Of a DNA stretch of 37,634 bases, positions 6,609-37,634 are shown one piece after another (position 1 is the stretch's first letter; each line of letters begins with the position of its first letter). The translations under genes and the position numbers were made by a program. This DNA comes from Peribolospora baueri (lineage: Eukaryota). The stretch is taken from NCBI GenBank assembly GCA_029717555.1, contig JAMDHS010000031.1, positions 186,001-223,634 of the forward strand, read 5' to 3'. The notes under the pieces are model-generated. The model searched no databases. It was given only the letters and a program-made list of their open reading frames with translations, and had not been told where the DNA came from.

Positions 6609-9155
<2,547 letters not shown>

Positions 9156-9799
9156 ACATGAAGCCTACCGTGCCTTCCAAACATGCCTTCAGCCATGGCC
9201 TCTCTTGATATATCCTGCATATTCCCCTGACCATCTAGCACGTCCAAATCTCTCTCGCCTTCACTCAATTTAGTCCATCATCTAGTCAAGTCGTCGAATA
9301 TCTGCTTCCCACGTCTGCTCTGCTCCTGTCATCGTCTCTCTCCTAGAAATCTAATAATAACCATCTTGGTCATGAAGGGTGCAAGGGATGTGCCGGAAAA
9401 GGAGGCATGAAGGACCGATGCGGGCGGGTCGCAAAACGGCGCGTCTCTAAGCGCGTCTACGCGTGCTCCTTTCTAGTCACACATGTCCCTTGGCAGCGCG
9501 TATGCGGTCGTCCAAGCGCTTCCGGACAAAAACCAGTTCGTCCGCTGTGTGCCGGCTGGCCCGCCATTCCCGCCATCTCTGGCGAGGACGGGCAAGCCGA
9601 CTGCACTGGACGGAAAGACTTGGGAGGGAATGGTTGGAGACGCTCTTGATTCGATGAAGAGTGGATCGGAGCTTCGTTCATGTCCGCCAGGGAAAAAGAA
9701 AGTCTCTCCCAAGGGGCAGGTCTTCCTCCATATCCATTTGTCTTACAGGCTATATATGGTTACAACCCAAGGGGTCTCCGGCGACCGAACCTCACCTCA

Positions 9800-11460
9800 T
9801 CACGCTTGTGCTTGTAGTTCAACCCGCTCCGACAACGACGGCTCTTCTCGGAAGGGCGAGAGCCAATCAGCACCCTCGCCTCGTTCTTCCCCCCTTCCCG
9901 GCTCTTCCTGTTGTCCAGCATGCCAATGGTCGGCATGCATGCCTTTCCGATCGAGTAGCTGCCGGGACGAGGTTGGAGGGTGTGATAGGGGACGCGATGG
10001 CTGCCCGTCGGACGCGGTAGAAGAGCGGCTTGGCTTATGCTGCGGTCTTTCCTTGTCTCCTTCATCTTTAGAGTGTAGAGTCTTCAGCACTGCCGGTGTG
10101 GCCTTGAGGTCTTCCCAGACGGGACGAGGCAGCTCAAAGCCGCTGCAGGAAACGGCGTGAGGGCAAACGTCAGCAGTGCTCAACTACAACAGAGTAAGGG
10201 GGCATATCACGAGGCCCTTACCGTACTAATCGGCCGTAGGACTGGCCACCGAGACGACTTAATGGAAGGAGCTTGGGTGGGTCAATGGTGTAGTCCGAGT
10301 TGAGAAGATCTGCGTATGATCAAAGCGGTGTTAAGCAAGATGAGGAGGGCTGCTACAGCCGAATCGAAACTTTTGTTTTCACCCTTTCGAACATGGATCA
10401 TCCTAAGTGCGAGGTCAGAGAAGATGCGAGGTCAGCGGAAATAACAGCAATCGCTCTTGTACCACGTTCCAACTCACCGTACCCTCCCCAAGATCATTGA
10501 TTGTGTCAACACGCCACTGTCATCGTGGATGTCAATGTCTTGATAGAGCTCACACTCAAGACTGAATGGTGACTCGCCCACTCGTGGCGGTCCGCCTTTG
10601 TCTCCTCCCCAGTAGGTGTTAGGGACGGGAGTCAGGCCGGACAGCTGTCATGATGGTGGAGGTGGGCGCCGTCAGGCCCATGTGCGGTCTAGTGACAGAG
10701 GAATGGCGACGCCTCACTTTCCACTCGCTGACATCGGACGGACTGTCGATCGAGGTGTAGTCTGCAGCTTCCGCGTACGGCTCACAGACGAGATTGACGA
10801 CGAACCGTTTCGTCTCCTTAATGTTCTTCACCGTATCCTTAAGCTTGCCCGGCTCAGGCGAGTTGACGGCGAAAGAGACCTGGCACGAAACGAGAGAAGT
10901 GAGCATATCGTAGCATTCAACCTCGGCCCCCTTATTACTCACTATAGGCGGCTTCTGCCCGACGGGTTGGAAATAGCTAAAAGGAGCTAGATTGCGATCA
11001 CCTCTGGCGTTCTGCGTGCTCACAAAGGCAATCGGTCTGGGAACGATGGCGTTGATGAAAAGCTTGTACAGAGACTTTGACGTCGCTTTCTTGGATGGGT
11101 CTAAATAGTCATGTGGAAGAGAGGGATCGATGTGATGGAACTCAGAGTTGGCAGGGTCGAAAAGATGTGAGGCAGGATGGTTTCGCGAAAGGCCCGTGCC
11201 GGGCAGCCATGTCGTGTCTGAAGTGTCACAGGCACGGACGCCTTCAGCAAAAGGAAACCGCAACGGGAACGATGTTCTTTCTCATGAAAGCCCTACCTGC
11301 CGACTTTGTGAGTCGAAAACCATCCAGAGCGTCGAAATCGGGCCGGTCCTTGTCGACGACTGCATAGAGGGGCCCCAAGATGACGGATTGAGCGACTAAT
11401 CGAGAGCAGGTTTCAACAAAGGTTCTGCCCACCTTTGAACTTGGCGTGCCAGCTACTCAT
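9800..11460 (-). CDS. Flavin-reductase-like FMN-binding split-barrel protein (NtaB/flavoredoxin-like), multi-exon
   Basis: Spliced: MSSWHAKFK|VVDKDRPDFD...TKS|DTTWLPGTG...LYKLFINAIVPRPIAFVSTQNARGDRNLAPFSYF...|KDTVKNIKETKRFVVNLVCE...SEWK|LSGLTP...PPRVGESPFSLECEL...|IDPPKLLPLSRLGGQSYGRLV|RGFELPRPVW. The C-terminal end at 9800 is less certain. Confidence 0.85.
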
Positions 11461-16337: not shown

Positions 16338-18773
16338 ATGTCCCAGACTTCGAATGAGAGAGCGTCAACCGGCACCAACGGTGCGGCACATCCCAAGCGT
16401 CTCATCATCAACCTTTTCGACATGTTCACGCCAGGCCATCTAACTCCTGGTCTGTGGAAGCACCCTACGGACATCACCCCACAGTGAGTATGGCCATGCG
16501 GCACTTCTACTGGCTGAATGACAGGAAGATGTACTTATCTCCTGAATCGTCATTCGCCGTCCTTTCCGTCAGGTTTGACACGATCGAGTATTGGACCAGA
16601 TTGGCCAAGCTGGCCGAAAAGGGAAAGCTTCAGGGAATTTTCATAGCTGTGAGTTTTCGCCCTTGATTGGAAGATCACATTGGCAGGGTCATGGCGTTTT
16701 GACTTGGCTTGCTATGGGGCTACCAACTCTCGCAGGACGTCCTTGGAGGAGTAAGTACTCAGTCATTTGTTGTCCCGGGGGTCGGAAGACTGACACTTTA
16801 CTCGGTCTTCGGCGGACAGTACGACGTGTACAACGGCAATCTCGATGCAGCACTGCGGGATGGGGCTCAGTTCCCAGTACTTGACCCTCTGCTGATCGTG
16901 TCGGCTATGGCGGCCGTCACGAAGGTGAGCGTGTAGCTGGTCGCCTACCTAGCCTGGCACCTTCCCGAAGACTCACTTTTGTCGTACTCCTTCCTCCGCT
17001 TCAGAACATCTATTTTGGCATCACGGCTTCGACTTCGTACGAGCACCCTTACGCGCTCGCACGCCGTTTCAGCACGCTCGACCACCTTACTAAAGGACGC
17101 ATCGCCTGGAATATCGTCACTAGCTACCTGAGGAGCGCAGCGAAAAACTTCGGCTTAGATGACATCAAGGAGCACGGGAAACGGTACGAAATCGCGGAGG
17201 AATATATGGAGGTGAGCATTAGTACGGATGTCAAGTGGAGGTTGATGCGTTTCGGTCTCTGCTGCGATCATCGTTCTCGCCTCCTTGTTATCATCTCAGG
17301 TAGTATACAAGCTGTGGGAGTCCTCCTGGAGCGATGATGCGGTGAAGAAAGACGCCAAAGCGGGCGTCTTCTTTGAGCCCTCACTTGTCCGTCAGATCGA
17401 CCACAATGGAGAGCACTTCCCTTCCGTGCCCGGCCCACACATCGTTCACCCTTCCATCCAGCGCACGCCGCTCCTTTATCAGGCCGGCACGTCGGGGCCG
17501 GGCGTAGCCTTCTCGTCTCGCCACGCCGAGGCGGTATTCATCTCGGTGAATACAGGAACCGCTGCAGCGAAACGTAGAAAAGCTCATACCGTCCTCAATC
17601 TGACCAAAGTCGATTTTCCCCGTATCTGAAGACTCCTTCGCCCGAAGGCGCGATTGATAGGGTTAAAGAAGTGCGCGCGAAGGCCAAAGAACTTGGCCGC
17701 GCCCCGAACAGTGTGAAGCTCATTACTCTCATCACACCCATCCTTGGACGCACGCAAGAGGAGGCGGAGCGCAAGCACGAGGACTTTAAGAAGTTCGCCA
17801 GTAGGGAAGGGGCGCTTGCGCTGTTCGGTGGATGGACCGGGTAAGTGAGCCCTTGCGGGCATGCGATGAAGCGCTTTACGTCTAGATTGTTCCCGTTGAC
17901 GAGAAGGTTTTGACTCTGTAGGCAAGACCTGAGCACGTTCGGCGAGGACGAGGAGCTTCGGTGAGCACTCGATCCGGTGGACGTCACCTGCCTGGGAGAA
18001 AGCAAGGCTAAAGTCCCTCCGTTCTTTCGACCACAGTTTCCAGGACACCAACGCAGCGATCAAATCGGTAAGCGTGCATCCGAACTCCCATTCGCTAGAA
18101 CGTCTTGTCTGACCAGTGCAAACTTTTGATCCTTTTCCATCTCTTAGATGGTTTCTACATTCGCTCGCGTCGCTCCAGACGTTCCCAAGTGGACCAAGGG
18201 CGTGGTCGCTGATTGGCTCAGCATTGGTGGATTCGGGCCCATCGTCGTCGGGTGAGTGGTCTCATGTAAATGAAGCTAAACGAAGAAAGTTGCGTTAGGC
18301 TGAAGGGTTCTTTTCCATATTCTCCTTCCTCACCGGCCCTTCCCCGGCCCTAAGCACTCCCCAATCTGTTGCGGACGAACTGCAGCGTTGGGTGGACATC
18401 GCTGATGTGGATGGTAAGTCCCAGAAGAAGCACCGTCAAAATACCTTCGTTATGTGACAGCTGCAAGATCGGTTGCTCACAGGCGGGCCTCTTGCGACCT
18501 CCCTCTCCTTTTTTCTCTCGGACTCCTTATACAGGTTTCAACTTTTCGAAAGCGCACCAGCCTCAATCGTTCGAGGACATCGTAGACCTACTCGTCCCGG
18601 AGCTACAGAAGCGTGGTCTGCACTGGTCCGACTATCCGCAGGTGCCGAAGTCGCAGGGGCAGGGACAGGGTGACGGCGAGAGGGGACTTTCGGCCAGGGA
18701 GTCGATCCACGGCGTGGGCCAGACCAGGCTCCGGGAGGACCATCCTGCTTCGCAGTACAAGTGGAAGCAGTGA
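16338..18773 (+). CDS. Luciferase-like flavin-dependent monooxygenase, DszA/NtaA/SnaA family, multi-exon
   Basis: KRLIINLFDMFTPGHLTPGLWKHP|...YWTRLAKLAEKGKLQGIFIA|DVLGG|YDVYNGNLDAALRDGAQFPVLDP...|FGITASTSYEHPYALARRFSTLDHLTKGRIAWNIVTSYL...|VVYKLWESSW...PSIQRTPLLYQAGTS...HAEAVF|...PQSFEDIVDLLVPELQKRGL...HPASQYKW. GT-AG introns join these in frame. Confidence 0.93.
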
Positions 18774-19457: not shown

Positions 19458-21914
19458 TCACTCCTCCATTATCACGTCCATCTCCGCCCCCGTTCCAACT
19501 CCCAGCGGTTCCCCCCCAACATCAGACACACTACTATCACCATCACCGCCACCAGCTCGTCCTGACGTCCACCCGCCCTCCGTGCCGGCAAGCCTCGGAG
19601 AAAAGGCGCTGAGCACGTCGCTAATGCTCATCGTCGCCCATTGACCCGTCGCCATCGATGTCCCTTGCGAAGCGGGAGGAGGAGGGCGTGAGGGAAAGGA
19701 CGAGGTCGTGGCGAGGATAGGCGGTGTCAAGCTATCGTGCAGTCCGAGATGCACCTGCACCCCAGCCGTAGGCGCGAAATCTCCATAGTGATTGGCAAAT
19801 TCGACGACAGCGGCATCCACTCCTATCCTTCCTCCTTCGCGCCTCGTTTCTTCTACTCGTGGAGAGGACACGGCGGCGGAAGCAGCGGCGGTGACGACGG
19901 AAGTGAGGTCCAAGACATCGGGCTCGTCAGTCTGGTAGTTGAGGCCGAAGCCAAGTTCTTCGAAGAAGGTGATCGTCGGCGCTCGTGTCATCGTGGCGGC
20001 TGTGGCACCAGTGGTCGACGCGCTGGGAAAAAGCACGTCGCCCGCGCTGTTATAGGCGCTGATGAAAGTAACAGGAGTAAAAGGCCAGCCTTCGGATGCC
20101 ACCGTCCTCATCCCGGCCTCGGTCCACGTCTCCGTCCCCGTCCCGGCTCCCCCGGCTCTCGAGCTCGAGCTCATGTTCCTTGCGCTGGAAGAGAGCCCCG
20201 TGGAAGAGGCAGGCGACGTCCAAGATGTCAGCATCGGTGCGACTGCCGGTGCCGGTGCAGGAGTGACATCGGCGGAAGCTGAAGTGCGAGGGCCGTGGGT
20301 GGGCGCATTCGCATCCACGCGACTTGCGGGAAAGGAGGGAGCGAAAGTGCGTAAAAAGTCGTCGATGTCCATCTGATGCATATCTCTGCCCCTCTCGTCG
20401 ATCATGTTCGGGCCACTTTGCTGGAGTCGTGGTCCTGGTTGTGGTGATGGATTTCGTGGGTGCATTCGCTCTCCAACTGCTCCTGCTCCTGATGCAGGGG
20501 CGGCTGCGCTCATCGGCCCCCGTGGGGGTTGCAACTGTAACTGCCGTTGGCCGATCCACGCTCCCAGTTGGCTAGCCGCGGGGGCTCCGGCAGCGTTGCT
20601 TCTGTCTAGAGCCGTACTAGGGTTAATCCAGTCGGACGTAGGACCGTCGTCGAGGGTTACTCCAAGGCCCAAGAAGCCTACGGGAGATGCGAGGTTACCA
20701 AAGATGGCGCCCACGCTGGTAGGTTTGTGCGAAGTAACGCCGATGGTCGGTGCAGTCTCGGTTTGCGAAGTGACGGAGTCCGAAAGAGACGGCCATGTCG
20801 AGGAACCAGCAGTGGGGGCCTTGAGAAAATCAGTGAGGCCTGCAATAGAGGCACCTTCCGGAGAAAGGACGGGCGAGTCATGTTGCAAATTCGTATGCGC
20901 CTTGCGCATGGCCATGAGCGTGACACGGGCCACATCCTCGGGAGAAAAAGTTTGCGCTTTGAGAAGAGCCTCGAGCGCCGTAAGAGTATTGTCTTCAGAT
21001 GACGGAGTCCGTTGTGGGCGCCTGCGCGTACGGGAAGGACAGGGAAATCGGTGAAGCCTGTTGGGCGAGGCAGAGTAGTGGCCGCGCAAGTTTCCCTTGA
21101 CCATAGGCTTGAAAGACACACTCACGTCATTTCCAACCCGAGCCCGATCTCCATGCCTACACCTCCGGAGAACCATTCTCCAGCAGGAGAAGGAGCACAA
21201 GATGGCAACGATGGAGATGGACCGGGCGTAGTTTCTGTGCTAGGGCGATCAGGTCGGATGTCACGCGCCGTTGTGTCGGGAGCCGTCTCTGTCTCGTGTG
21301 CATCGACATCAGGCTCAGCATGAACCTCGGCACTGACACCAATGTCGGCAGCAGCTTCTGGGGCGGAGACCCCGGCGCTTGTGCCGGGGACGTGCAAAAA
21401 GGTGGGCAAGAGAGTTCCGGGCGGCACGAAAGCTTGAAAGAGATCCTCGAGCTCCTTCACGCGCGCTTTGAGCGCCGAGTTCTCGCTCTCGAGGGAGGTG
21501 ACATGTTGAACCTGACGTTTCCCTGTCATAGGTAGCCGCAGGCCAAAGAGGAGGCACCGGGAAACAACAAGAAGGCGAGAGAGAAGCGAAGGAAACAAGG
21601 TGGAAGGTGACGGGGAAACGGTCCGGAGTGAGCGAAACAGACGGCGATGGAGGTGTCAGACAGCTGGCGGCTGAGGTCAATCGTAGCTTTTCTGACGACG
21701 CACGATATTCCCTCTGGCTAATCAGGTTCCTCGCTCTTCTGCTAGCCGTGGTCTTGTAGAACCTGGGCTCCATGTCCTGCTGCTCCGTCGCCGACCCTAC
21801 CTTGTCCGTGGACTTCTTGGGGACCTTTGAGCGACTGGAGCGCCCGGATTTACGCTTTGAGGTGGTGAGGGTGGGGGGCCCCGGCGGCCGAGGGCCGATC
21901 GTCATCGTGGTCAT
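19458..21914 (-). CDS. Yap-like bZIP transcription factor, paralogue A; exons ~21914-21704, 21522-21126, 21021-19458
   Basis: FYKTTASRRARNLISQREYR|KRQVQHVTSLESENSALKARVKELEDL has N-x7-R-x9-L spacing and Leu heptads once the GTGCGT...CAG intron (21703-21523) is removed. The start could be upstream (ATG 22058). Confidence 0.75.
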
Positions 21915-22988
21915 CGTCGACGTCGTCAGGGCGGTCGAGACGGCGGGCCTTACCTTTGTTGGCGAGCATCTGTGTACGTCCTCGACGTGGTCGCAAAGGA
22001 AGGAGACGTCGGACGGCGGAGAGGGGGTATATGTGCTGTATGGTGTACGCGTGTGCATGTATGCGCAAAAGATACATTACTTTGCCTCATGCCGCCAAGG
22101 GAAGAAGAACCGGGGGGCGATGCGCGCCTTCATTCACGTTTATGATGGAGAAGGACGACGAAGTCGACGAAAAGGACGACGACGACGACACGATAGGCTG
22201 CTGAATGCTGACTGCTGAGTGCCTGGAGCGGATGCAGTCGGCGCGGAGCATTTATTCCCATTGCTCCCGTACGTACAACGAATGGTCCCATCCAGGCCCG
22301 CCATCAAGTCCATCACCACCCGATCTCGTGCGCCGACGTCCAATACCCTCGACGACTCGAGCGCCCGCGATGCGTCGACGTGCGATTCAAGTAGATGCGT
22401 ATCGCCCTCATGCCCGCGCGGACACGTAGCATCGGCAGTCAGTCAGCTTTCTCCATGCTGACCGACCGGCCAGGTCAATTCTCGGGTGCCATACGTCCCC
22501 TTTTTCCAACTGCGCTCTCTGCGGTGGACGCCTGCTTATCTATCCATCTACCATGGCCGAGAACGGTCCACGAGTTCGTTCTATCCCCGCACCGGTCTGC
22601 CCGGGACAGCCAGACGCCCGTCCCGGCCTGGACGGCAAGACAAGGCCAACGATCGACCCTATCAGGCGGCTGGAGGTGAGCGATTGGAGAAATCTTGACG
22701 ACTGCACGACATCCCGGCACACTTAGCCGCGGTAGGCGCTCACCCGTCTCCGTTCCCTGCGTACCGTGCGATGCGTCGCATGGGAGCTCGTAGGCACCCA
22801 GCTATGCCCACCGTAGCTGCGACTCGCGACAGAAGTCGGTCGATGAGACCTTTCGACGTCAGGAGACTCGCGTCGACGCAGGCAGCGATGCAATGAGGTC
22901 TCGGACAGACAAATAAATGCAACCTCGCGAACTGGATCGTCCGAATCACAATGGGCGAACCGGACTCGCAAGCGGGAGAGAGCGTCCA

Positions 22989-25900
22989 TCAACCAACCAT
23001 ACCGCTTCCCATCCCAGTCTCGCCCAGCGTCGTCCGGCCAAGGCTATCCTCGGCCCTGCGAATAGCCCTGCGCACCTCCGCCAGGACATTGCGCAGCTCC
23101 TTGACGCGCGGTGACGCTTCTCTACGCGGTAACCCCGCCGCTGCTGGATGAGGCGCGCGCTTGGCGGCCGAAGGCAGAACGAGCGGACGAGACGCATCGG
23201 AGGAGGGCCGTAGAGAGCATGCTTGTTCCGTATCCCCTTCTTCCTTCTCTTCCTCTTCCTCTTTCCAGACAGGCGCGCGAGTCTGGGAGAGAAAAGCAGC
23301 AGAAGAAGCTGAAGGCTCAGAAACTCGCCTGCCGAGCTTGCCCAGAAGCCGCTCCTTCTCGCGAAGGAGCATGAGGGTGTACGGGCTAAGGGTGACAGCG
23401 CTTTCGCTCGCCACGACTCCGGTCGCCGTCCCCGAGACGGCCCTATAAGTACCATCGTTTTCGTTGTCTTCGCTATCGTTATAGTTGTCGTGATCATCGT
23501 CGCCGCCTTCTCTTCTTCCTCGTCCTCCTCCTTCTTCTTCACCGCAGAGACTAAGGCCAAGACGGTTCGAACGAGCATGGAACCGTCGGTGCCCTGGGCG
23601 GAGAGCTGCGGAATGTTGAGGCGGACGGAGAGACGTATTGGAGAGGTACGCACACCGGCTCTGCCATTCGCGTTCGTCATCACCGGCGAAGGAGCTATCA
23701 GCGCCGCATGCGTGCTCGCAAGCACACTTCCCGAACGACGACGGTAACGGCGGTGGCGATGGCGATGGCGATGGCGACGGCGACTCGAGCACCAAGGGAC
23801 TACCAAGCTCCAGAGTTGGAAAAGGCTCTGATCGCTCCCCGAATGCCTCTCGCTCTCGGCCCTCCATCCTCCGCTCGGGGCACAAGACGGGAAAAGCGGC
23901 CTCCAAATCCCATCTCCGACGAAGGCTCTGCTCCTCGTCGTCCGCTGAATCTTCTTCGAGCAAGCTTTGGGGAGCGCCATTCTTCGTTGAGTGCTGGGTG
24001 AGGTCTTCCCCTCTTCCACCATGAATTCCTCGCTCGGCTGCCTCCGTAACGGTGACAACAGGGGGCGCAGAGGCACGATGAGGCCCCCTAAGAGGAGGTG
24101 GGGAAGGAGATGCGAGCGAGGGCGACCGAGGGGCATCGGCACCGTCTCCATGGAAGATACGGTCAAGGCTATGATCATCGAGTGACATGCCCGTCGGTTG
24201 GCTGGAATGCCGACGGTGAATGGTCTGTCGCGGAGAACCGTAGCCATAAGCGAACGGAGAAGTTTCCAGGACAGAGAACTCGACCTTTTCCCGTCCTGGA
24301 GAGGATGAAGGCGAAGATAAAGGCCGAGGTGGGTGAGGACGAGGCTGAGAACGAGGAGCGACCCGTTGAACGAAGGGAGAGGTTGTGAGGTAGGAAGCGT
24401 CGTACCGCTGCCCGTGTCCATCGCAGCGACATTCGCACTCGCACTCGCACTCGCACTCGTATTCAAGGTCGTCGTCGGTAGGAGAGGGGACGGTACTACC
24501 AGGACGATGTCGGAGATGTGCAGACGAGGAAGAAGACGAACCCGCCACTGGCGACAAGACCTCTTGGGGGGCAGAGGGAATCGGTACCGGCGAAGGGGCT
24601 TGACAGGAGCAGATTCGATCCACCGGCAAAGGTAATAAGGAGATTTCGCATGCGCAGCTGGCAGAGACTGATGGGGCGGGGGTCGGGGAACTCTGTGTGG
24701 TGGAGAGGTCGTCGTCGTCGTCGTCGCTGACGGGTACTTCCGCTTCAAACTCGTCGTGGTCGCCTAGCGTTGCGTCCGGCGCCGAGAGATGTCGAACGTC
24801 GGGGACGCCATACGACCTCTCTCTGGCACCAGCGTGCAGAGAGCGATACCACGGCTCGTGCGAGAGATTACGCCCGACTCGTGCCCCGCTTCCCTCGCCC
24901 TCATTCGCCACCATTGCTGAAGATGATGGGAGAGCGTGGTCCGCGACATGCTCACCGGGCACACCGACCTCTCCATCGACTCGATACGTCCGCAAGGAAC
25001 GAGCGTGACCATCTTGGCCGCCGGCCTCTCCTATCGGCACAGGCGGCAGCACGCGTTCCCTCCACGTGCTTATATTCGCCCGTCGCCCGCTCTCCTCCCT
25101 GCTCTCGCCCACCTCCCCTACCTCACTCGGGCCCCCGCCTTCTATTTCCTCCTGGCGTTCCCTCCACCATTCCTGCTCCTGGAACCGCTCCCAGTCCAGC
25201 CTTTGGCGCGTCCGCTTGTCCCGCTCTTCTATCGCCAGCTGCTCTCGCTCCGCTCGTGCGACTGCCTGTCGCAGGGCGAGTTCCTCGGGGGTGATGGAGG
25301 CGACGGGTGCAGAGACGGATGGGGCAACGAGACTGAGTTCTTCCTTTGGCATGTCGCGTCGTCTGGTTCGCGAGTCGACTTCTTGAAAAGGCTGCGAAGG
25401 CAACCTGCCCTGCTCAAGCCCTTCCCCGTCCTCGTCACCGTCCTCCTCGTCGTATGCGCGCCCGTCCAATTCCTCCGAAACCTCTCGCTGCACCTCCACC
25501 TCCCTCCTCAACGCCTCCTCTCTAGCCCTCCTGGCCTCCAACAGCTTTAGACCCTGCGTGAGCGCTCGCTGCAGGTGGTGGATGCGCATCGCTCGGAGGG
25601 TGCGCGTCTCCTCCTCGTCCAGCGGCTTCACGTCGGCGTCGGAATCAGAGTCGGAGCGGGAAGAGACGGTGGTTACCGTGGTGGTAGTGGTGCAGGAGCA
25701 AGGCGAGTCGGTGCTGGCATTTTCATCATGCTCTCCGTCGCGGCGGTCTCCGATCGCGGTCCTGGGTGGCCAGAGAGGGGCGCGTGAGGGTGAGACATGC
25801 GAAGGGGTTGGGGAAGAGGGCGGAGTAGAGGAAGAGGAAGAACGACGGATTCCGCGAGACGCATGTGCGCGACCAGAACTGGTTCTTGGAACGGTAGATG

Positions 25901-26897
25901 TTCGCGAAAGACGGGTGGTACGCGTCGGCGTCTCGTCGTGGTTGGGGGGTGTGCGAGATGCTCGTCCTCGGCCTTGCGGCGGCGTCGTTGGACCCTGTCG
26001 ACGACGCGGACTAGGGAAAAGAGAGGTACGGCTGGGCCGCGGCGTGGAGGAGACGAGGGAGGAAAAGCTGGTGCCGGTATGAGGGCTCCTCGTCGTCGTC
26101 GGCGTCGTCGTGATGGTGGTCGTCGTCGTCGTTGGAGTGGAAGGCCTCTGAGGGCGGATAGACAGCGGATCAGCGGAGACAGACATGTGGATCGTTTGCT
26201 CTTCGTTGTCGAAAGACGGACGACGAGCAGCTCGGACTTGATACCCTTCCCTGCACGCTACCTCGACAACCGCCCATGCCAAAGTCTCCAACTGCTGCCG
26301 CCTCTCCTTCTCCAGACGCAGTCGTTCCGCACGTACGTCCACATCAGGATGTGGTCCAGAAGAGGAGGAAAACGGGTGGAAGGGATCATGGGACAAGGAC
26401 AGGAGGAGGGGGACGTCAATGGCGGAGAGGTCGAACGGCGGCGTCGGGTCGTCGTCGAAGGCGTTCGACGACGACGACGACGCAGCGGAGGGAACGGGCT
26501 TGGAATCTGAGAGACACTCTTCGAGCATACCGAGGAAGATCTTGAGTCTCCTTCTCTCCGCCTTTGGCGCGTGCTCGTCCCCGACCTCTGGAGCCGCGGG
26601 CAGGCGAGTGCGTTTGACGACCTCGAAGAGGGCGATGAGCACCGCTGGTCGGACATCGGCGAGAGAGCGGAGGAACGGGAGCCGTAGAGCGACGAGGAGA
26701 GAGTTGAGCGCGTCGAGAAGGGGAGACCGGGCTTGGTGCGCCTTGGCGGACGTGTGAGAGGAGGCCGAGGATGGGTGAGCGGAGGCCGAGGTGGTCAGTG
26801 CGCTCTCTCGGTCGCGAGTGCTCCCTCCTCGATCACACGCCGACCACCGAGGCTCGCCGGCTCCTCGGCGGCGACGGTGAGGTCGCGAGACGTCCAT
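22989..26897 (-). CDS. 1302-aa intronless, largely disordered protein with a probable DUF5745 (CEP95 N-terminal-like) domain and coiled coils
   Basis: Long uninterrupted ORF. LLDALNSLLVALRLP...LADVRPAVLIALFE...RLP...LKIFLGMLE...LSAIDVPLL and C-terminal SPYTLMLLREKERLL resemble, from recall, a conserved basidiomycete DUF5745 family. The ORF is well supported; the domain call is less so. Confidence 0.65.
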   Translation of the reverse strand: MDVSRPHRRRRGAGEPRWSACDRGGSTRDRESALTTSASAHPSSASSHTSAKAHQARSPLLDALNSLLVALRLPFLRSLADVRPAVLIALFEVVKRTRLPAAPEVGDEHAPKAERRRLKIFLGMLEECLSDSKPVPSAASSSSSNAFDDDPTPPFDLSAIDVPLLLSLSHDPFHPFSSSSGPHPDVDVRAERLRLEKERRQQLETLAWAVVEVACREGYQVRAARRPSFDNEEQTIHMSVSADPLSIRPQRPSTPTTTTTTITTTPTTTRSPHTGTSFSSLVSSTPRPSRTSLFPSPRRRQGPTTPPQGRGRASRTPPNHDETPTRTTRLSRTSTVPRTSSGRAHASRGIRRSSSSSTPPSSPTPSHVSPSRAPLWPPRTAIGDRRDGEHDENASTDSPCSCTTTTTVTTVSSRSDSDSDADVKPLDEEETRTLRAMRIHHLQRALTQGLKLLEARRAREEALRREVEVQREVSEELDGRAYDEEDGDEDGEGLEQGRLPSQPFQEVDSRTRRRDMPKEELSLVAPSVSAPVASITPEELALRQAVARAEREQLAIEERDKRTRQRLDWERFQEQEWWRERQEEIEGGGPSEVGEVGESREESGRRANISTWRERVLPPVPIGEAGGQDGHARSLRTYRVDGEVGVPGEHVADHALPSSSAMVANEGEGSGARVGRNLSHEPWYRSLHAGARERSYGVPDVRHLSAPDATLGDHDEFEAEVPVSDDDDDDLSTTQSSPTPAPSVSASCACEISLLPLPVDRICSCQAPSPVPIPSAPQEVLSPVAGSSSSSSAHLRHRPGSTVPSPTDDDLEYECECECECECRCDGHGQRYDASYLTTSPFVQRVAPRSQPRPHPPRPLSSPSSSPGREKVEFSVLETSPFAYGYGSPRQTIHRRHSSQPTGMSLDDHSLDRIFHGDGADAPRSPSLASPSPPPLRGPHRASAPPVVTVTEAAERGIHGGRGEDLTQHSTKNGAPQSLLEEDSADDEEQSLRRRWDLEAAFPVLCPERRMEGREREAFGERSEPFPTLELGSPLVLESPSPSPSPSPPPLPSSFGKCACEHACGADSSFAGDDEREWQSRCAYLSNTSLRPPQHSAALRPGHRRFHARSNRLGLSLCGEEEGGGRGRREGGDDDHDNYNDSEDNENDGTYRAVSGTATGVVASESAVTLSPYTLMLLREKERLLGKLGRRVSEPSASSAAFLSQTRAPVWKEEEEEKEEGDTEQACSLRPSSDASRPLVLPSAAKRAPHPAAAGLPRREASPRVKELRNVLAEVRRAIRRAEDSLGRTTLGETGMGSGMVG

Positions 26898-27767
26898 TCA
26901 AAAATGTCGGGGCACGCCACGAGAGCGATTTCGTCACGCGACGCGCTGTTCCTTAGCCGAAGGCGATCGTGCCGGTGTGTGATGGTGAGGGCGAGACGGA
27001 AAGGACCGTTCGTTTGTGTGTACGTGTGGACGCCATCTCCTGTTCGACGCCCTCAGCGCGTCTCGCACGCGGGCGTTCCGGACAAAGGCGGTCCTCGGCG
27101 GAGATCGCCTTGGAAAGGTCGCTCAGGAGTAAGGGCCAGATCTGATCAGATTAGGCGCGGCATCGTCCGCCCAAGTTAGCGGCACCGGCGCGTAAATCAC
27201 GTTTGCCGGTCATCTGACGGGCTGGACGGCAGAGATACATACAGGCAAAGCGTCGGTGGATCTAGTCAAAGGGCGTGGCAACTACCGATTAGCAGCGAAC
27301 AAGCGATCGATCGATCGAGGGCAGGGGACTTATATAAAACCGAGCCCACTTTTTTGTAATGGCCGCCGTCCCTAAGGCCGTAACCAACCCGCCGTAGCGG
27401 CCGGCTATTGCCGTAGTTGTAATCGCCTCGTGTCTGGGCCCTCTAACCCTAGTCCTGGAGCGCCATAAAAGCCTTTCTCCTTGTTCCTCCCTCTCTCCCT
27501 CTCCCAGAGGACCTGTAAAAAAAAAAAGTGCGAATATGTCGGGTTGCGTAGCGCGAGTGCTGAATCGAGTGCGAATAGCGAAAAAAAGTGTAACCGTTTG
27601 CGGCTACAATACGCACAAGTCGCGTGTGACGAGTGCCAGGGCGACTCATCGTGATCGAAGGACTGAGGGGTCGAATGTCGTGGGGAAAGTCGGAATGTCG
27701 AGCGACGGCCGCGACGGCGGCTCGTCGAGGTCGAACGTCGGATTGTCGAGCGGCGAGCGCAACGGCG

Positions 27768-28914
27768 TGTGATTTAATATATACAAAATGTTCGTTGGAA
27801 AAATTAAGTTCGGATCGTTTTCGTGGGAATTTCGGCCCGAAGTGTTACTACCCCTCCTTCCGCGCCCCGCGCGCGCGCGTATGAATGATCTGAACGCGGA
27901 CCTGCTGCAGCATATGGACGGGCTAACGTTGTCATTCGACTCGTATGATTCGGCTGACCTGAATTCGAGCGCGGCCGGTCGAGTGGAGTTGACCGCCGAA
28001 TTCCTCGCCAGCATCAACGTGCCGAGCCTGCCGCGGGCCCATCTGGAGCTCCGCATCGGCGCGCCGGTCATCCTGATGCGAAATCTGGATCCGAATCAGG
28101 GACTCTGCAATGGCACGCGCATGACGGTCGTACGCACCGCCCGCCACCTTCCAATTAACGCGGCTCCAATTTCCCCTGCGATTAGCATTTGCTATGACCA
28201 TCAACAAATCGCAGGGGCAGTCGTTGCGCGACGTTGCGTCGACCTGCGAAGCCCAGTCTTTACCCACGGCCAGCTGTATGTTCCACTGTCGAGGACGGCT
28301 GATGTGGATGGCGTCTCCCTCCTCTACTCCCCAGATAATACGGGCCGAATCACTAATAATATTGTATACCCAGAGATTCTCCGCGCGTTTACTCCGTGAC
28401 ACCACTTTATACCCCTATATACTTTCCTAGTTCCGGTAGATCCTATAGCTTTACCCCTCCGGGCCTGGCGGCGCGTATAGATCCTATAGATCCTATAGTA
28501 TTTATAACCTTTTCTTTCGGCAGTTGCTTTAGCGGCTTCACTCTTACGTGCGGGGCACCTGCGCGCGCAGGGGGGCACACGAACCCCTTAAAAAAAAGGG
28601 GGGGAAGACCTGCGCGCAGGCGCGCAGGCGGCACACTGGCAGGCTGGCAGACGTCTCTACCGTGACCATGTCGGCACTGACCATCAGCAACACCTTATAC
28701 GGACCTGCCAGCGCTGCAAAAAAAAAAGGGGGGCCCCTGCGCGCACACGCGCAGGCGGCACACTGGTTCACATACGACTTTGTCGTAGACGGTGGCCAAA
28801 CCCTGGGAACTTGGCCCGACTGCGCTCCAGACCCCTATGTACTACCATTGCGCCCACGCTCCCTATGGAGGAATACCATCACGATTCTTACTCACAGCTA
28901 TAAGTCAAATCACA
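27768..28914. mobile_element. Insertion with TGTGATT...AATCACA ends and a 4-bp target-site duplication GGCG (solo LTR, MITE or Ginger-like host element)
   Basis: GGCG(27764-27767)|TGTGATTT ... AAATCACA|GGCG(28915-28918). Excision restores the flanking 48-bp tandem repeat. Confidence 0.75.
27773..28766 (+). mobile_element. Internally deleted, non-autonomous Helitron carrying a Pif1 helicase C-terminal remnant (~27881-28399)
   Basis: EFLASINVPSLPRAHLELRIGAPVILMRNLDPNQGLCNGTRM...[deletion/frameshift] [22 protein letters not shown] [frameshift] [19 protein letters not shown]...[10 protein letters not shown]. The 3' hairpin CCTGCGCG-CACA-CGCGCAGG (28736-28755) ends 11 nt before CTGG|T (28763-28767). 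The 5' boundary A|TTTAATATATACAAAA is tentative because TC is expected. Confidence 0.8.
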
Positions 28915-30262
28915 GGCGGCTCGTCGAGGTCGAAGGTCGGATTGTCGAATGACGAGCGCAACGGCGGCTTGTCGGGGTCGAGAAAGTCGAACGGCGCAAG
29001 GAACGAAATTAGTATACTGTCAAGGCTGGCTGGGATTTCATCCATCTCCCAGCACTGAGCTCACCTCGATGGCGACAATACAGTACTGTGCCGTAGGGGT
29101 GGTAACGCGACCAGATAGCGAATAAGCAAGTGACCCGTGGAGGAAGAAGGGAGGCGACGTAGGCAGGGGGAAAAGAAAGCGAGACGGTGTAGAGGGGAAA
29201 GGGTTGCGAGGTGTCACGGGCGGCGTCAGAAGAGTGGTATTGAGAAAGGCATGGCCACGCAAGGAGCAAAGAGCGAGCCTCAGGACGCTGACGCAGGCGT
29301 CAAAAACCAGTTGCCGAGGCAGACCGACCATTTCCACCAGCGCCGACGATCGCCGTTCTCGCCGTTTTGGAAGCCGTCCTTTTGGCCAGCCCTCCTCTCG
29401 ACTTGCATCAAAGCCTCCTCGGTCCTTTCGTCTGCGTGCTTCTCCCTCTTCCCTCCGGAGCCGGCCTCCTTCTTCTCCATCCCTCGCGCGCACGAGAACG
29501 GCGTTGAACGACGACCTATGCTCTGTCTGCTCGTATCTGCCAGCGGGCTCCGCTCATGGGATGGTTAGCCGCCGCCGCCGTCGTTGTCGTCTTCGATGGG
29601 ACGTCGCGAACGAAGGACGCTGATGAGCGCCTGCGCTGGGCGGCATGCACGCGCTGACCCGATCGCCTCGCGTCGTCTATCGATGCCTGCCAGCCGAGGG
29701 GGAGGGGGTATGGGAGAGGGGAGAGAAAGAAGGGCGAGAAGGGTATATGTACACATATATATATGCAAACGCAAGCGGAGGAGACAAGGAAGAGTCTTCT
29801 TTCCATTCCCACCCTCTCTCTCTCTTTCTCTCTCTCCTGTGCTCTCTTGCTTGCGCTCTCGCTCCACTTGCCCGACCAGTCCGACGTCGTCGCCCGTCCG
29901 TCGTCGCCTTGAACGACATCCTCAAAAAAAAAGTCGTCATCGTCATCGCCAGCATCAGCACCGCCGACGCCGACACCGACGCCAAACAAGACGACGCGAG
30001 ACGACACGAGACAAGACAAACAAGAAAACACGAGACAAGAAAATAACACAAGACAGACGTCGCCGTCCGCTCTCTTCCTCCTCCTTCCGCCCTCGCCTCC
30101 ACCTTTTCTCTCCTGCTCTCTGCGCCCCCTTGACCACCTCAAAACGCTCCTGTCCCGTCGCCGTCCCATCCGCCTCCTGACCTCCTTCTCTAGCTTCTGC
30201 CGCCTTCTTGACTCTCGCGGACAAAGACTGAGAAAGACTGAGAAGACAGCCTGAGGGCCTCC

Positions 30263-33095
30263 ATGGACACGTCTCAGCACCCTCGCCACTCCTCCCGCTC
30301 GCCTCCTTCACACCCCCACCGCCGCGATCCCGCCCCTTCTTCCACTCAGGCCGCCCTCCCTCACTCCGCCTCCCAGACCGAGCTCTCGTCCGCACTCTTG
30401 CTCGGCGTAGACCCTTCTCCCGACGTCCATGCCGCCACCGCCGGCCCTGGCCCTGGCATCGGCGTCGGTTCCTGGGTCCTCGGTCGGTCCGCGAGCGAGG
30501 AGGAGCAGGAGCAAGAGCATGGCCAACACCAGGGAGATGACCAACATCACGCCTATCAGCAGCATCAGCAGCAGCACCACTACCACCATCACCACCTCCA
30601 CCGTCAGCACGGCGGCTTTCAAACACCCGCCCACGTCCATTCCCCCTTCCCCTCCTCCGCCGACGTCCACTCCTCTTTCCTCTGGCCGCCTTCCCACCCA
30701 CTCTCCTCGTCTTCCTTCGTCTCCCATCGAGTCCTCCGCCCCACCGTATACAGCCACCAGTCCCATGCCCCGATCGTACAAGGCGCTCTGCCGATCCCGC
30801 AGTCTACTGGAGCCGGTGGCATCCAGCAACAGCCGTACGGGACGATGCACGTGCCAGCGATGTCGTCGTCCTCCCCATCGCCGTCGTCGTCTTCTTCGCA
30901 TCCCCTCGGCGTCGGCACGCACGACGTTGCGACGCTTTCTGGCGTCGTCGCTGCGGAAACCCACCTGTCTTCTTCGTCGGCCAGGAGCGCCGGCTCCTTT
31001 AACGCCGTGAGTCCTTTCGACGTCCTCGGCAAGAAGCATCGCCTGGGACGCCGGCCATCGCCCGGGTCCCCGTCGATGCCCTCGTCGTCGTCGTCGTCGC
31101 TTTTCGCTATTTCCGGAGGTGCCTCCATGTCCGCTCCCGCCACTGCAGCGTCCCCTTTCACGACCTCGAGCGCGGGCTGGGCCTACCCGTCGCCGGCACA
31201 GCACTCCGAGGCCGAGGCCGAGGCCGAGTCTAGTCGGGCACGCTCTAGGACCTTTCAATACGCCAACCCCTGGGCTCCTTGGGCCGCTGTCCCTGCTCCC
31301 GGTCCGAGTCCGTGTCCGGCACCTCCCCCCGAGGGGCAATTCTTTAAGACGAGGCCGGAGAGAAGGGCGAAGAACATGGTGGCCCAGAGGGAATATCGTG
31401 AGTGCGCCCCGCTGCCAAGCCAAGCAAGGTCCGCTTTCGCATGTCGTTTCGTCCCGGTTTCACTCGCTCAACCCTGGTTTCTCTCTCTCGCTCACTCGCT
31501 CGTCGTCATTCCTACAGGCAAGCGCAAATCTGCCCATTTGGCGGCGCTCGAAGAAGAGAACGCAAAGCTCAAAAAAAGGATCGAGGAGTTGCAGGCGGAA
31601 GTGACGGAAAGGGAAGGAGAGGGAGAGCGGGACGAGTGGGAGGCGCATGAACGAGGCGGCGGTAGTGGTGACGTTGGAGAGCGAAAGACGTCACAACGAC
31701 AACAGGAGCCATCGGCCTTGGACGAATTTTTCCATCCCATCGATCTTCACCCGTCCTCTGCCTCCTCGGGCCATTTGGCTGGATCGAGCGGTGGCGGTAG
31801 CGGTGGCGGTGGCGGAGGTGGCCGACGGGGCGCCGACCATCAGGAGGACGGGCCAGGCGCTCCTCCACCCGGTTTCGAGGGAGAATTAGGACCCATGTGA
31901 GTGTGGACGATCTTCTCTTTCAACGACCGGCGGACCAACCACCGCTCACGTTGTTTTCCTCTCCCGCCCCCGCCCCGCCTCGCCCCGCCCGCCCTCCATC
32001 ACCCGGATTAGGGGCCGTCCTTGCGCCTGGAGCGCGACTTCGCGCGAATCGCCGTCGTCCACGCACCTCTTCCCCATCCCCCTATCCCAACAATACGGCG
32101 GCTTCCAAAGCGACGCGACGTCAGGAGAAAGCTCGCAATCCGTGTCGCTCTCCTCCTCGTTCCCCTCCGTCGTGTTTTCCTTGTCCGACGTGGACCGACG
32201 CCATCCCCCGTCTCTCCATGCGGACGACGACAATGCGCACGGCTGGGGTTTATCGGGCCCGTCCTCCTTATTGGCACAAGGCTGGAACGGTCACGGGAGA
32301 CATGCGACCTTTCCGCTCACGCTCCCGCCGTCCTGGCTCAACGACGCATCGGGCCCTTCCGAAGCTCTTGTCGTGGAGACGACAGCCGGCCGCCGTCCAG
32401 AGCAGCAGAGACGGCCGTCGCCTCCTTGTTCCGGAGGAGGAGGAGGACTCCTCCTTTTCGTACCGCACGAGCACCCGACGTTGTTCGAGGGAGACGGCGG
32501 CGACATGGACGTCGACCCACCGGCTCACCGCGGCTCCGACAAGCCCAGGGACGGATCGGCGGAGCTATGGTCTGGCGCGGGCGAGAAAGATACGTCCGGC
32601 CTTGGCCTGTCGGCAAGTGGTACGGCCCACGGTCGCACGCTCGATGACGACTCGTACGCTTGGGCTCTGGCGCCGGCAGACGAGGATGAGGACGAGGACG
32701 AGGACGAGGAATGGCGGGCGACGCCGCCGCCGCCGAAGATGTCTTTTACCCGGGGTGGACGACGGTTGTCTTGGTTGGGCGGACGAGTGCGCCTCCGGGA
32801 GGGCGACGGTGACGATGTCATTGCCGACGACGATGGTGCCGATGTCGACGTCGTGGCCTTTTGTGGTGTGCGTCGATGGAGCACCAAGGCTTTTTCGGCA
32901 GCAACGGTTTCGCACGAGGCCGGACGAAGAGGAGGCCCGCTCCTTTCGTCCGCGGCGATGGCGTTCTCGGGACGTCTCGACGGGGTCGAGTGTGCAATGG
33001 CCCGGCTGGAGCGAATCGAACGGGCGCAGGCGGAGGCGGGGGTGGACTTTGTGGCCGCGTCTAGACGGAGTAGCGGGAGCAGCGCTTCCATGTAG
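30263..33095 (+). CDS. Yap-like bZIP transcription factor, paralogue B; exons 30263-31397, 31518-31896, 32012-33095
   Basis: His/Gln/Ser-rich N-terminus; FFKTRPERRAKNMVAQREYR|KRKSAHLAALEEENAKLKKRIEELQAEV. Introns GTGAGT...CAG (31398-31517) and GTGAGT...TAG (31897-32011) join in frame to the 32142-33095 ORF. Confidence 0.8.
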
Positions 33096-33210
33096 GAAGT
33101 GGACTCGACAGCTCGTCCTCACCGTTGCCTTTCCGTGGCGTCCTCGCTCATGCTTGTAGCCGTCGGTCCTCCGTCGCTTCGGTAATACCCCGATCCCCTC
33201 TCCTGGCACC

Positions 33211-34068
33211 TCACTCACTCACTCACTCACTCACTCACTCGCTCGCACAGCACAAGCACAAGCTTGTCTCATGATTCCCTTCCCCTCCATGCTTTATTAG
33301 ACACTTGGGCCTGCCTGCCTTCTGTTGGCCGTCGGAAATACACGCAATAGAAATAGGAAACATGGCCTGGCGTGGCGTTGCTGCGACCTAGACGGCCCAA
33401 ATGGAAGATTCTTAGACAAGAGACAAGTGTCGAGGACGGCGGATCGATGCTGCCGTCGTGTCGTTGTCGTTGTCGTGCCGTGTCGTCGGTGGGATGAGAT
33501 GGGACGGGGACGGGACAGGATAAGATAGCGGCACGGTACGGTACGGTACGGTACGCGAGTCGAGTCCGACTCGGGTTGAGTAGAGTAGAGTTCGGTCCAA
33601 GTTACGGCCAAACTCGATGCAAAGAAGGCCAAAGCCAAAGCCAAAGTTCCCCGTTCCCCGTTCCCTCCCGCCGGGCTGGGCGGTTATCAGGCGAACAGGC
33701 GAAAAGAGGGAGAAGGCTTGTGCTTGTGCTTGTGCTTCGATTCGATTCGATTCGCTTGGCTTCGATTCGTATGGCTTCGCTTCGATCCACACGGCTTGGC
33801 TTGGCTTCGTTTGGCTTGTGGCTGTGCCTCCCTCGTCACACACAGTCGAGTCAGTCAGTCAGTCAGTCGCGTGTCCCCGCGCGCACCGGACTGCAGACTG
33901 GTCATGCAAAATGGGCAGGGCAACCCACCCGGCCCTATGCGGAGGCTTGAGGCGCTCCTTCTCACGACGGGCACGAGTCATCCTCTGTCGGCGAGGACGG
34001 GGACGCGGCGCGATGGCCGCAGTGGCTTGTCCTTAGCCCGTCCGTTCGTTCGTTCGTTCGTTCGTTCG
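33211..34068. repeat. Dense cluster of different short microsatellites
   Basis: (TCAC)n 33211-33240, (GTACG)4 33536-33555, (CCAAAG)3 ~33629-33646, (GCTTGT)n and (TTCGA)n ~33716-33753, (AGTC)n 33849-33868, (CGTT)n 34043-34068. Confidence 0.9.
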
Positions 34069-35357
34069 CAGACCGTGCCCGAGTTGGTTCGCTGCTATGC
34101 TCTGCGCAGCAAGCAGTCCGTTCTCAGATCTCGCTTGGTCGCAAGCGAGGAACGCGCTCGACGAGGGCCCGCGACCCGCCGTCGGCTCCGCGCCCGGCTC
34201 CCCCATACGATCCCTCGTGCTGCACGCGACACATGGTCAAGTGTCGAGCGTGCCGCAGTCCCCACGCTGAGCGCGCCGTCACGCGCCGAGCACAGCAAGC
34301 GGAGCCAGCAGCAGCAAGTCAGGGTCAGGGCAAGCACAGCTTCCTCCTGGCCGCCCGTCCCGTCGTCCCGCTCACCCGCTCACCCCGTCGCCCGTCGCCG
34401 GTCGCTCCGAGCATCGCCGGCCGTTTGCCCAGTCCAGTCGAATCATTCATGCGCTGTGCTGCGACGCCCTCGCCGGCCCGCTTCGCTTGCTTTGTGGTGG
34501 AAGCGCAAGTGCAAATGGGAGTGGGAGTGCAACACACGCGCTCACCGCACCACCACCCGCACGCACGCGGGGCGAGGGCGAGGGCGAGGGCGAGGGCAAG
34601 GCGATGCACGCGGGTCCTCGCCACCTCCACGCCGCCCGACCATCGTCCGACGTCATCTTCGCCTTCTTTTTCATCTTCGCCTTCGCCTTGCCGGATATCT
34701 CCACCACGTCCTCGACAGCCCGCAGCGCATCTCGCCCGCCCCGTCAGCCTTCCCGGCGGATCTTGTACTTCCGTTGGCCTGTTGGAGCCGCGCAAGCGCC
34801 CATCCCGTCCTGAACTCCGTCCATACGCCCGCTTGTTTGCCGCACTCCACCGTATATCGTATCTCGTTCCTGTACCGTACACAGATCGTAGTCGAAGCAA
34901 ACTGGACTGTAATACCAAACGAAGGAACATGCAGCGCGTGCCGTAGTGGACGTCGACGACGAGCGCTAACGTCCAACGAACATGCCCATGCAATCCCATC
35001 CCACGCGTCCCTCCATCCGTTGGTATAAAGTCTTCGCGCCGCCTCCACTTGCTACGTCCTCCCCCTCGCCTCGCCTCGCCTCCACACCCGCATTCCTCCC
35101 TCGCTCCACCTCCGCCTGTCTTGCCCCCATATGTCCGCTGCCTGCCTCTCTCTCCGCTCGCCGGGCATTTGATGTGAGTGTCCTGCGACCGACCGACCAA
35201 TCGATGGCGGCCTAGATAGATAGATATCTAGACGATCGCCTCCTCCCTTATCGCTGCGGCTGTCTTGTCTTGTCTCCACTTGCTTGCTCACCGCCTCACC
35301 CTCTTCTCCGACCCTTCTCCTCGCCTCGACGGCCCGCCTCCCTTCAACACGCCCACC

Positions 35358-37028
35358 ATGCCCACCACTCCCACGCCCTTCATTCAACCACAGCCGCCCT
35401 CCACCATTGCCGTTTTGCTTTCCTCCACCCCACCATATATGCACGCCCTCTCCGCCTCCGTCTTCCCTGCCGACCCCACCGCCATCCTAGCCCTCACCAT
35501 CGCCTCCACGGACTCACCCGCGACCCATACCCACGGTCTCGGATTGACTTGGACTTACGCCCGGTCAGCAGAGATGAGCTCCGAGGGAGGCCGCCAGCTG
35601 GGCGCCTACGCGGCGGCCTACCTCCACGCAGGCGCTCTCAACCGCCGCGCCTTCCCGGCCTTCCCCTCCTCCTCCTCTCCCGCAACCGCAACCGCAACCA
35701 CTTCCCAGCTCATCTCCGACCCAACCCCCGCCTTGACCGCAGGAGAGCCAGAGCCAGTGCCAGTGCCCCGGGCGCGGGCGCGGACCGTGCACGCCACGAT
35801 GCCCAAGCCGGGACAGGTGTTCAAGACAAAGCCGGAGAGGAGGGCTAAGAATATGGTCGCACAGAGGGAATACCGTGAGTCGACCTGTTGCCGAGCTGGC
35901 TAGCCAGGAACGCGGACGGGCGGTTGATGACAATCATCCGCCCCATCGGCCGTTTTTTTCACTTCCTTTTCTTCCGACTCCGCTTCCGTCCCCGTTCCTC
36001 TCCCGATCAGGTAAGCGAAAGAACGCGTACCTTGCCAACCTCGAAGCAGAAAACGTGCAGCTCAAGAGACGCCTCATCCACCTCGAGGCACAGCGCGCTG
36101 GCCTCACTGTCGACGAATGGCGCGCGCAAAACCGCCAAGAGGCGTGGGAGCTCGACGTCGGTGACCCGGGCAGCGATGCCGGTGACCCCGTCGACGCGTC
36201 GTCGACCGACGTTCACACTCACGCCGACGGTGACGTCACCATCGGCATCGATGGGAGCGGTTCGGAGGACGACGACGACGACGGCGGTGGTGACGGCGCG
36301 GTCAAGAGGAAGCGCGCCGTCGACGCCGACGGGGACGGCGACAACGTCGGCCTCGACGTTGGCCTCGATCGCAGCCTCGGCATCGGTCGCTCGCCCGTCC
36401 AGGCTCGATCCGAGTGAGCGGACCGGCCCGCGTCTCTCATCCTCCGCTTGCTCACACACTCTGACCCGCGCGCCCTCTCCTCCCTGCCGTCAGAGGAGGC
36501 GCCTCCGCCGCCCTCCAGCGCTCCCCTTTCTTCGCCCCTGCCTGGCCCTACTTTCTTGCCTCCGGCTCCCACACCGCGCCCGTCGATGACTCGCCCTTCG
36601 CCTGGTCCCATCCTCCCTCTGCTCACAGTCATCGTCACCATCCCGCCATCGCCGCCACCGCCGCCGCCGCCACCTGGGGCACGCACGCGCGGAGCATCAG
36701 CGCACCGGAGGCGGAGGGGTCTAGCGCGCCCACCCGGCGACCTTCCCTCCTACCCTCCCTTCCGGAGGTCCACTCCTCGGCCCCGGCCACCGCTGACCAC
36801 TCTATCTCCGAGTCCATCTCCTCCTCAACCGCAGTCTCCTTCTCCGGCCTGGGCCAGACGACCATCGTCCCTCTCCCTTTCAAGCTTCGCCTTGTCCGGG
36901 GCCGAGACGAGCTGGTTGAGCGCGACGAGCAGATGCAACGACGACGACAGAGACCCGGCTGGCATGGCGCGAGAAAGCGACCGCCGGCAACGGCAGCAGC
37001 CGACCATGTCGACTGTCCTCACCTCTGA
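35358..37028 (+). CDS. Yap-like bZIP transcription factor, paralogue C; exons ~35358-35874, 36011-36413, 36494-37028
   Basis: VFKTKPERRAKNMVAQREYR|KRKNAYLANLEAENVQLKRRLIHLEAQ. Introns are GTGAGT...CAG (35875-36010) and GTGAGC...CAG (36414-36493). The start codon and last exon are less certain. Confidence 0.78.

Positions 37029-37573: not shown

Positions 37574-37634
<61 letters not shown>
37574..37634 (+). repeat. Poly(T) tract of 61 nt running to the window end
   Basis: Directly visible, preceded by GCTTT-type repeats. Confidence 0.95.

Follow-up and report, generated by a model that had tools for sequence, protein, structure and literature searches.

Fungal transcription factors of the Pap1/Yap group, which are basic leucine zipper (bZIP) proteins, are the closest described counterparts of the genes analyzed here. 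In the available text of PMC7261193, the residues of the Pap1 signature RxxxNxxAQxxFR contact a TTAC half-site, and HapX carries a KPGRK motif before its basic region. In the accessible rows of supplement 1 of PMC4736632, Tyr stands for Phe of this signature in Yap5, Yap7, and Cap1, and Ser stands for Ala in Yap8. The window, which is the whole analyzed stretch of 37,634 nucleotides of Peribolospora baueri DNA, forms the final 37.6 kb of contig C241 (genome size 22.7 Mb in 668 contigs) and contains three bZIP genes, here named A, B, and C. The original prediction described them as a self-contained local trio of diverged genes. It is well supported that the feature is real, and that it is larger and less local than that: A, B, and C belong to a family of six. 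We consider it moderately probable that this family is a lineage-restricted bZIP expansion through tandem duplication and relocation, whose members would be paralogous dimeric regulators with overlapping DNA sites and different flanking regions.

In A, B, and C, a phase-1 intron interrupts the codon of the invariant Arg of the basic region. Searches with exon pieces revealed three further members, namely D on contig C33, E on C284, and F on C273. The Arg-codon intron was present in 6/6 members and in none of the nine other modeled bZIPs. The latter, which together with the six members make up the 15 modeled bZIPs of the genome, served as the comparison set; this set may be incomplete, as intron-split domains escape Pfam. 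The common origin of the six genes is supported, since the intron at this site occurs in 0/9 of the other bZIPs. A pattern combining the basic region with the donor site returned nine matches, six of which were these genes, and inspection of the other three showed that they are not bZIPs. An independent zipper pattern returned the same six genes and one Cys/His-rich, zinc-finger-like protein. In all six spliced models, whose exon/intron junctions are predictions from sequence, the basic region fits N-x7-R, with a leucine heptad repeat at x9 after it. Against a home-made profile of the nine other bZIPs, the members scored 18–33 bits and their shuffles at most 2 bits (A, 31; B, 33; and C, 27 bits, with 300 shuffles at 2 bits or below). 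Domain identity was 19–36/45 within the family versus 6–17/45 to the nine others. One further gene, L005 (G000:C439:5191-5295), was examined as a candidate member and excluded: it lacks the intron, has Asn at the third a position (a3) of the zipper, and shows an identity of 12–17/45. It is a bZIP-like frame with an uncertain start and gene model, in which the basic-region Asn is displaced and Ser occupies the usual place.

The family was almost invisible to domain searches of the genome, because the intron halves the domain. None of the six members was among the 15 matches to PF00170, and the PF07716 search returned, among nine matches, the zipper of F alone from the family (E 0.28). On unspliced pieces, the zipper halves scored 14–15 bits, below the Pfam cut-off. 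Intron-split bZIPs can thus be missed by domain searches. Six of the 15 PF00170 matches (L009-L014) were excluded from the trees, as their basic region was not seen; one of them, L012, may be an intron-split bZIP.

The domain has been kept by purifying selection, as the original prediction proposed. Its statement that the basic regions of B and C differ mostly by synonymous changes was correct: of 22 codons, 10 are identical, 10 synonymous, and 2 replacement. The same region of A and E differs by 9 synonymous and 2 replacement codons. The nonsynonymous and synonymous proportions (pN/pS) in the basic region were 0.05/0.79 for B–C and 0.04/0.64 for A–E (Fisher p 1e-7 and 3e-6, respectively). The dimer interface remained unchanged while synonymous sites approached saturation.

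Phylogenetic analysis (LG+G4; a mixture model was set aside as over-fitted for 53 columns) revealed that A and E are sisters, with support of 98/99 in the protein tree and 100/99 in the DNA tree. They share 36/46 domain residues, and beyond the domain they remain alike at the end of exon 2, in exon 3, and in a C-terminal motif. B and C form a pair in the protein tree (83/76); in the DNA tree, C groups weakly with F. Monophyly of A, B, and C was rejected (approximately unbiased test, p-AU 0.0048 for protein and 0.0002 for DNA). The local trio is therefore not borne out: D, E, and F lie on other contigs, and A is closest to E. The claim of an old local duplication survives in part, as common origin, old divergence, and non-random clustering all hold for a family that extends beyond the trio.

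The probability that three of six genes fall within 18 kb by chance is approximately 4e-5. The clustering is thus not a chance event, and its simplest reading is an old array from which D and E departed, either by relocation or as copies. We propose that one Pap1/Yap-like bZIP gene multiplied in this fungal lineage, giving six paralogues including A, B, and C. The old tandem array would persist at the end of C241 as A, B, C, and perhaps F, and D and E would have moved or been copied elsewhere, E from the line of A. This is the order of duplication and relocation events that we infer. Segmental duplication was rejected as the route, since the flanks of D, E, and F have no gene in common with the window, and transposon-driven copying was rejected, since the repeat of the window was unmatched near D, E, and F. 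F lies 0.8–2.7 kb from the start of C273, which opens with seven T, and C241 ends in a poly-T run of 61 T (37574..37634, +). Starts with seven or more T were found in 5/29 sampled contigs longer than 20 kb, and hence these T runs are no proof of adjacency. We nevertheless find it quite probable that the end of C241 and the start of C273 adjoin, which would make F an array neighbor of C. TTAGGG-type telomere repeats open two other contigs, C383 and C652 (L079 and L100).

The basic region of the family resembles that of Pap1/Yap factors. The R, N, Q, and R of the Pap1 signature are present in 6/6 members, Ala is present in 4/6 (Ser in A and E), and Tyr replaces Phe in 6/6. An [FY]-[KR]-T extension lies upstream of the basic region in five of the six; upstream extensions of such kind tune specificity in Yap8, according to the available text of PMC7261193. 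Each protein consists of a conserved 46-residue core, which would comprise the basic helix and a short zipper, and a fast-changing low-complexity remainder, which is the probable source of differing activation or control regions. The basic helix of each should read a half-site like that of the Yap response element (YRE). Self-regulation was tried and rejected, as there is no exact YRE near the genes.

Several points weigh against a single lineage-restricted expansion of such regulators. The tree alignment of 45 domain columns gives little resolution, and a branch uniting all six members is absent from the best protein tree and occurs in 6% of the bootstrap trees, although it is not rejected (p-AU 0.39). 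Where Pap1 has a phosphate-binding Arg after the invariant Asn, the family has a hydrophobic residue, and the predicted YRE-like site is argued from motif likeness. Outside the domain, there is an apparent frameshift in A and another in E, and the third-position GC of A is 0.61 versus 0.70–0.77, which hints at decay in the A/E subfamily. The apparent restriction to one lineage is argued from half-domain searches, which are weak.

The strongest alternative concerns the zipper. It is short, with Asn at the second a position (a2) and paired Glu/Lys-Arg flanks. Across the six members, the pairwise identity was 0.78 at a/d, 0.79 at e/g, and 0.11 at b/c/f positions (permutation p 2e-5). In coiled coils, pairing depends on Asn at a2 and on g-e' charges, and like charges bar a homodimer; our pair counts follow these rules. 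Asn faces Asn at a2 in each of the 21 family pairs, which have 2–6 attractive g-e' pairs apiece, and repulsive pairs within the family occur in B-B and B-D only. Five of the six homodimers have 4–6 attractive and no repulsive pairs; B is the weakest, with 2 attractive and 2 repulsive. In family-outsider combinations, repulsive pairs equal or outnumber attractive ones in 46/54 cases, the main exception being a Zip1-like gene of doubtful register, and Asn at a2 is found in 0/9 outsiders. By coiled-coil rules, the six are predicted to be capable of homo- and heterodimers among themselves, as a closed class. An obligate heterodimer pair of the Fos/Jun type was considered and rejected, as no member has a homodimer clearly barred by like charges. 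Complex prediction with the zippers of A and B (42 residues each) gave a score of 0.20 against a mark of 0.34, which is evidence neither for nor against pairing.

These results invite the reading that the family is a selected combinatorial network, in which one shared dimer code joins two DNA-reading variants (Ala in B, C, D, and F; Ser in A and E), mixes regulatory arms, and is insulated from the other bZIPs. The attraction with Asn-Asn at a2 in all family pairs, the unfavorable outsider pairs, the weak charge count of the B homodimer, and the interface fixed while synonymous sites neared saturation all agree with it. However, a conserved interface is no proof of a selected network, because selection on homodimers gives the same pattern: as the available part of PMC6711710 describes, selection on homomers can indirectly keep heteromers of paralogues. 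Moreover, no member has a clear obligate-heterodimer zipper, the clustered genes do not form a clade, and half of the family lies on other contigs. We regard the selected network as doubtful. The heterodimer module of the original prediction fits the zipper code, but it would be family-wide rather than local, and such pairing is the default for duplicated homodimers. In the accessible part of PMC6545440, yeast bZIPs act mostly as homodimers.

Under the expansion that we favor, the members most likely act as dimeric transcription factors that are regulated differently and whose sites overlap. Heterodimers could form where two members are co-expressed, as an inherited by-product of the homodimer interface and not as the reason for the cluster. 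The expression and the dimers of the members are presumed here. It is unlikely that the family is a private closed bZIP network, in which six of the 15 modeled bZIPs would have in common a single dimer code from which the others are excluded, with two DNA-reading variants and unrelated regulatory arms, derived from a three- or four-gene array. If true, an animal-style combinatorial heterodimer system would have evolved within a single lineage of basidiomycetes, and the intron in the invariant Arg codon would have concealed it from six-frame Pfam searches. If the members merely homodimerize under different conditions, the case is an ordinary paralogue expansion. Either way, the family, whose six old paralogues combine unrelated flanks with a frozen pairing surface, offers a compact natural case for asking whether paralogue heterodimers are selected or inherited.

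A less probable alternative is that birth-and-death evolution is under way, with B, C, and D working and with A and/or E, perhaps also F, being young pseudogenes or truncated, possibly dominant-interfering copies. Upstream of A, an ATG and a stretch resembling the N-terminus of E (21850..21969, −) are out of frame with the bZIP domain of A, reflecting an apparent frameshift or an alternative start; 13/2000 shuffles scored equally high (best of three frames). Among 13 possible GT-AG introns that could restore the frame, none combined a good donor with a good acceptor. The A-like C-terminal motif of E is also out of frame (L044 2600-2790). The low third-position GC of A and a transposon remnant inside the cluster point the same way. 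In contrast, exon 3 of A is still open over 520 codons, the splice sites of A are intact, its domain is preceded by an ATG in the same frame, and strong purifying selection acts on the A–E domain. The shifts in A and E may be assembly errors, alternative starts, unmodeled splicing, or early decay. We consider this alternative quite unlikely.

The outside searches used half-domain or intron-split-domain queries, so that their sensitivity is low and distant relatives are not visible to them. A query reading B through its stop-free intron found 0/342 candidates at E<=1. The zipper profile gave 13 matches at E<=10 among 7379 candidates: four were generic coiled coils without the basic motif, and nine carried WD40-type or transposase-type Pfam labels. 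The basic-region profile, a half-domain query, found 0/7888 candidates, and none at E<=0.001 in 1.84 billion representatives. A metagenome pattern search returned one match, which lay on the reverse strand of a bacterial gene for fatty-acid synthase and was due to chance. The PDB search returned coiled coils only, and the Atlas search only generic bZIP clusters, under 0.9. By eye and non-exhaustively in the accessible table of PMC4736632, the motif pair of the family was found in none of 21 rows (0/9 of Ustilago maydis and 0/12 of Cryptococcus neoformans), while the conserved bZIPs of this genome resemble the Ustilago and Cryptococcus rows by the same comparison. Together with the style of the introns, this resemblance points to a basidiomycete. 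The literature search, whose coverage mostly excluded subscription papers, returned no account of such a bZIP family in a basidiomycete. The deep divergence between subfamilies (19–27/46 identical residues) and the blindness of half-domain searches to distant relatives would suit a fungal bZIP clade that is ancient and wider, or several groups of orthologues, sharing this intron, with an expansion older than the lineage, but the absence of outside matches, the 21 rows without the motif pair, and the separate Yap1-, HapX-, Atf1-, Gcn4-, and Zip1-like genes of this genome (named by likeness to the accessible rows of PMC4736632) make this very improbable.

Within the window, all coordinates of the three predicted genes were verified, with A on the minus strand and B and C in tandem on the plus strand, together within approximately 18 kb. 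The middle exons of 397, 379, and 403 nt and the phases of both introns were likewise as predicted. The claim of identical exon architecture extends to the whole family for intron 1; intron 2 is in phase 2 in A–D and in phase 0 in E, and F has no convincing intron 2. As intron 2 sits in non-homologous sequence, it is comparable between genes by phase and not by position. A, B, and C align with one another only within the domain of approximately 46 residues, in agreement with the lack of similarity outside it that was noted originally.

Gene A (19458..21914, −) encodes 723 amino acids from the ATG at 21914, an uncertain start assignment, to the stop codon at 19460-19458, and has the basic motif N-x-x-S-Q-x-x-Y-R of the A/E subfamily. 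Exon 1 ends at 21704 and is followed by intron 1 (21523..21703, 181 nt, phase 1 in the invariant Arg codon), exon 2 (21126..21522, 397 nt), and intron 2 (21022..21125, phase 2), for which there are two possible acceptors, 21021 and 21057. Exon 2 encodes a zipper of approximately four heptads, and its 3' end resembles E. Gene B (30263..33095, +) encodes 865 amino acids, has the motif N-x-x-A-Q-x-x-Y-R, and ends with a stop at 33093-33095. Its intron 1 (31398..31517, 120 nt, phase 1) is a multiple of three and stop-free; if retained, it would add 40 residues between the basic region and the zipper and could mislead gene callers. Exon 2 of B (31518..31896, 379 nt), with a zipper of approximately three heptads, is followed by intron 2 (31897..32011, 115 nt, phase 2). 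Gene C (35358..37028, +), in tandem with B, encodes 484 amino acids, its stop ending at 37028, with intron 1 at 35875..36010 (+, 136 nt, phase 1), exon 2 at 36011..36413 (+, 403 nt), and intron 2 at 36414..36493 (+, 80 nt, phase 2). All six introns of A, B, and C are GT-AG, with 59–69% pyrimidine, and each has a branch-like word, the nearest in A intron 1 being 110 nt from the acceptor. The exon-2 frame of each gene ends in a TGA within a GTGAGY donor (3/3), whereas TGA occurs in that context in 81/996 cases window-wide, and the exon-2 donors are therefore favored as real.

Between A and B lies an unrelated, intron-free, low-complexity open frame of 1302 codons (22992..26897, −) without a Pfam family, which is overlapped by long frames on its own strand. 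It is followed by a degenerate multi-copy repeat (27300..29050, +; 38 matches in the genome) containing a Pif1 helicase 2B fragment (PF21530, E 4.6e-19), which may be a Helitron-like remnant. A 52-nt repeat occurs close to both ends of this element, at 27716 and 28915. Elsewhere in the window, Pfam identified a phosphotransferase-family gene (3604-4302, −), a phosphoglucomutase gene (7028-9270, +), a flavin-reductase-like gene (10622-11281, −), and a luciferase-like monooxygenase gene (16885-17626, +).

A C-terminal cysteine-rich PAP1 domain is a feature of Yap1 orthologues. No PAP1 Pfam family was found on exon 3 of A–E or exon 2 of F, and the genome has a separate Yap1-like gene, L008 (G000:C645), in which we observed an apparent GC-AG intron within the zipper (1565-1575). 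The KPGRK motif of HapX is present in 0/6 members and in another gene of the genome, L007. With the Pap1/Yap proteins available for comparison (Pap1, Yap1-8, Cap1, and HapX), the family shares R-x-x-x-N-x-x-[AS]-Q-x-x-[FY]-R and a first zipper Leu ten residues past the invariant Arg. It differs in the hydrophobic residue after Asn, the upstream extension in 5/6 members, and the short zipper with Asn at a2, and it has no supported grouping with the Yap1- and HapX-like genes of its own genome in a tree of this genome's sequences, the deep forks of which are below 80. The six lack the tested features of Yap1 and HapX orthologues, although they may be likened to Pap1/Yap factors in their predicted working.

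The BIP1/MGG_08587 clades of Pezizomycotina, likened here by description from the accessible text of PMC10833574, are also divergent paralogous bZIPs on the AP1/HapX side that genome surveys overlooked; in contrast, their conservation spans a subphylum, and they are reported to be missing from Basidiomycota. In the available part of PMC9028111, the "tandem" bZIPs of Fusarium graminearum are defined by 200-kb proximity only. As far as PMC4046829 could be consulted, the expanded bZIP classes of Phytophthora sojae are likewise lineage-restricted, with tandem duplicates and some copies relocated to other scaffolds. However, these belong to an oomycete, the expansions are far larger and more recent, and the invariant Asn is substituted, whereas the six old paralogues described here retain it. 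The Yap family of S. cerevisiae, in the accessible portion of PMC6545440, similarly consists of several paralogues with a common basic region and a divergent remainder, but it originated from whole-genome duplication and not from a tandem array, and each of its members has known orthologues. Beside these systems, the present expansion is ordinary in kind, and the family is apparently restricted to its lineage.

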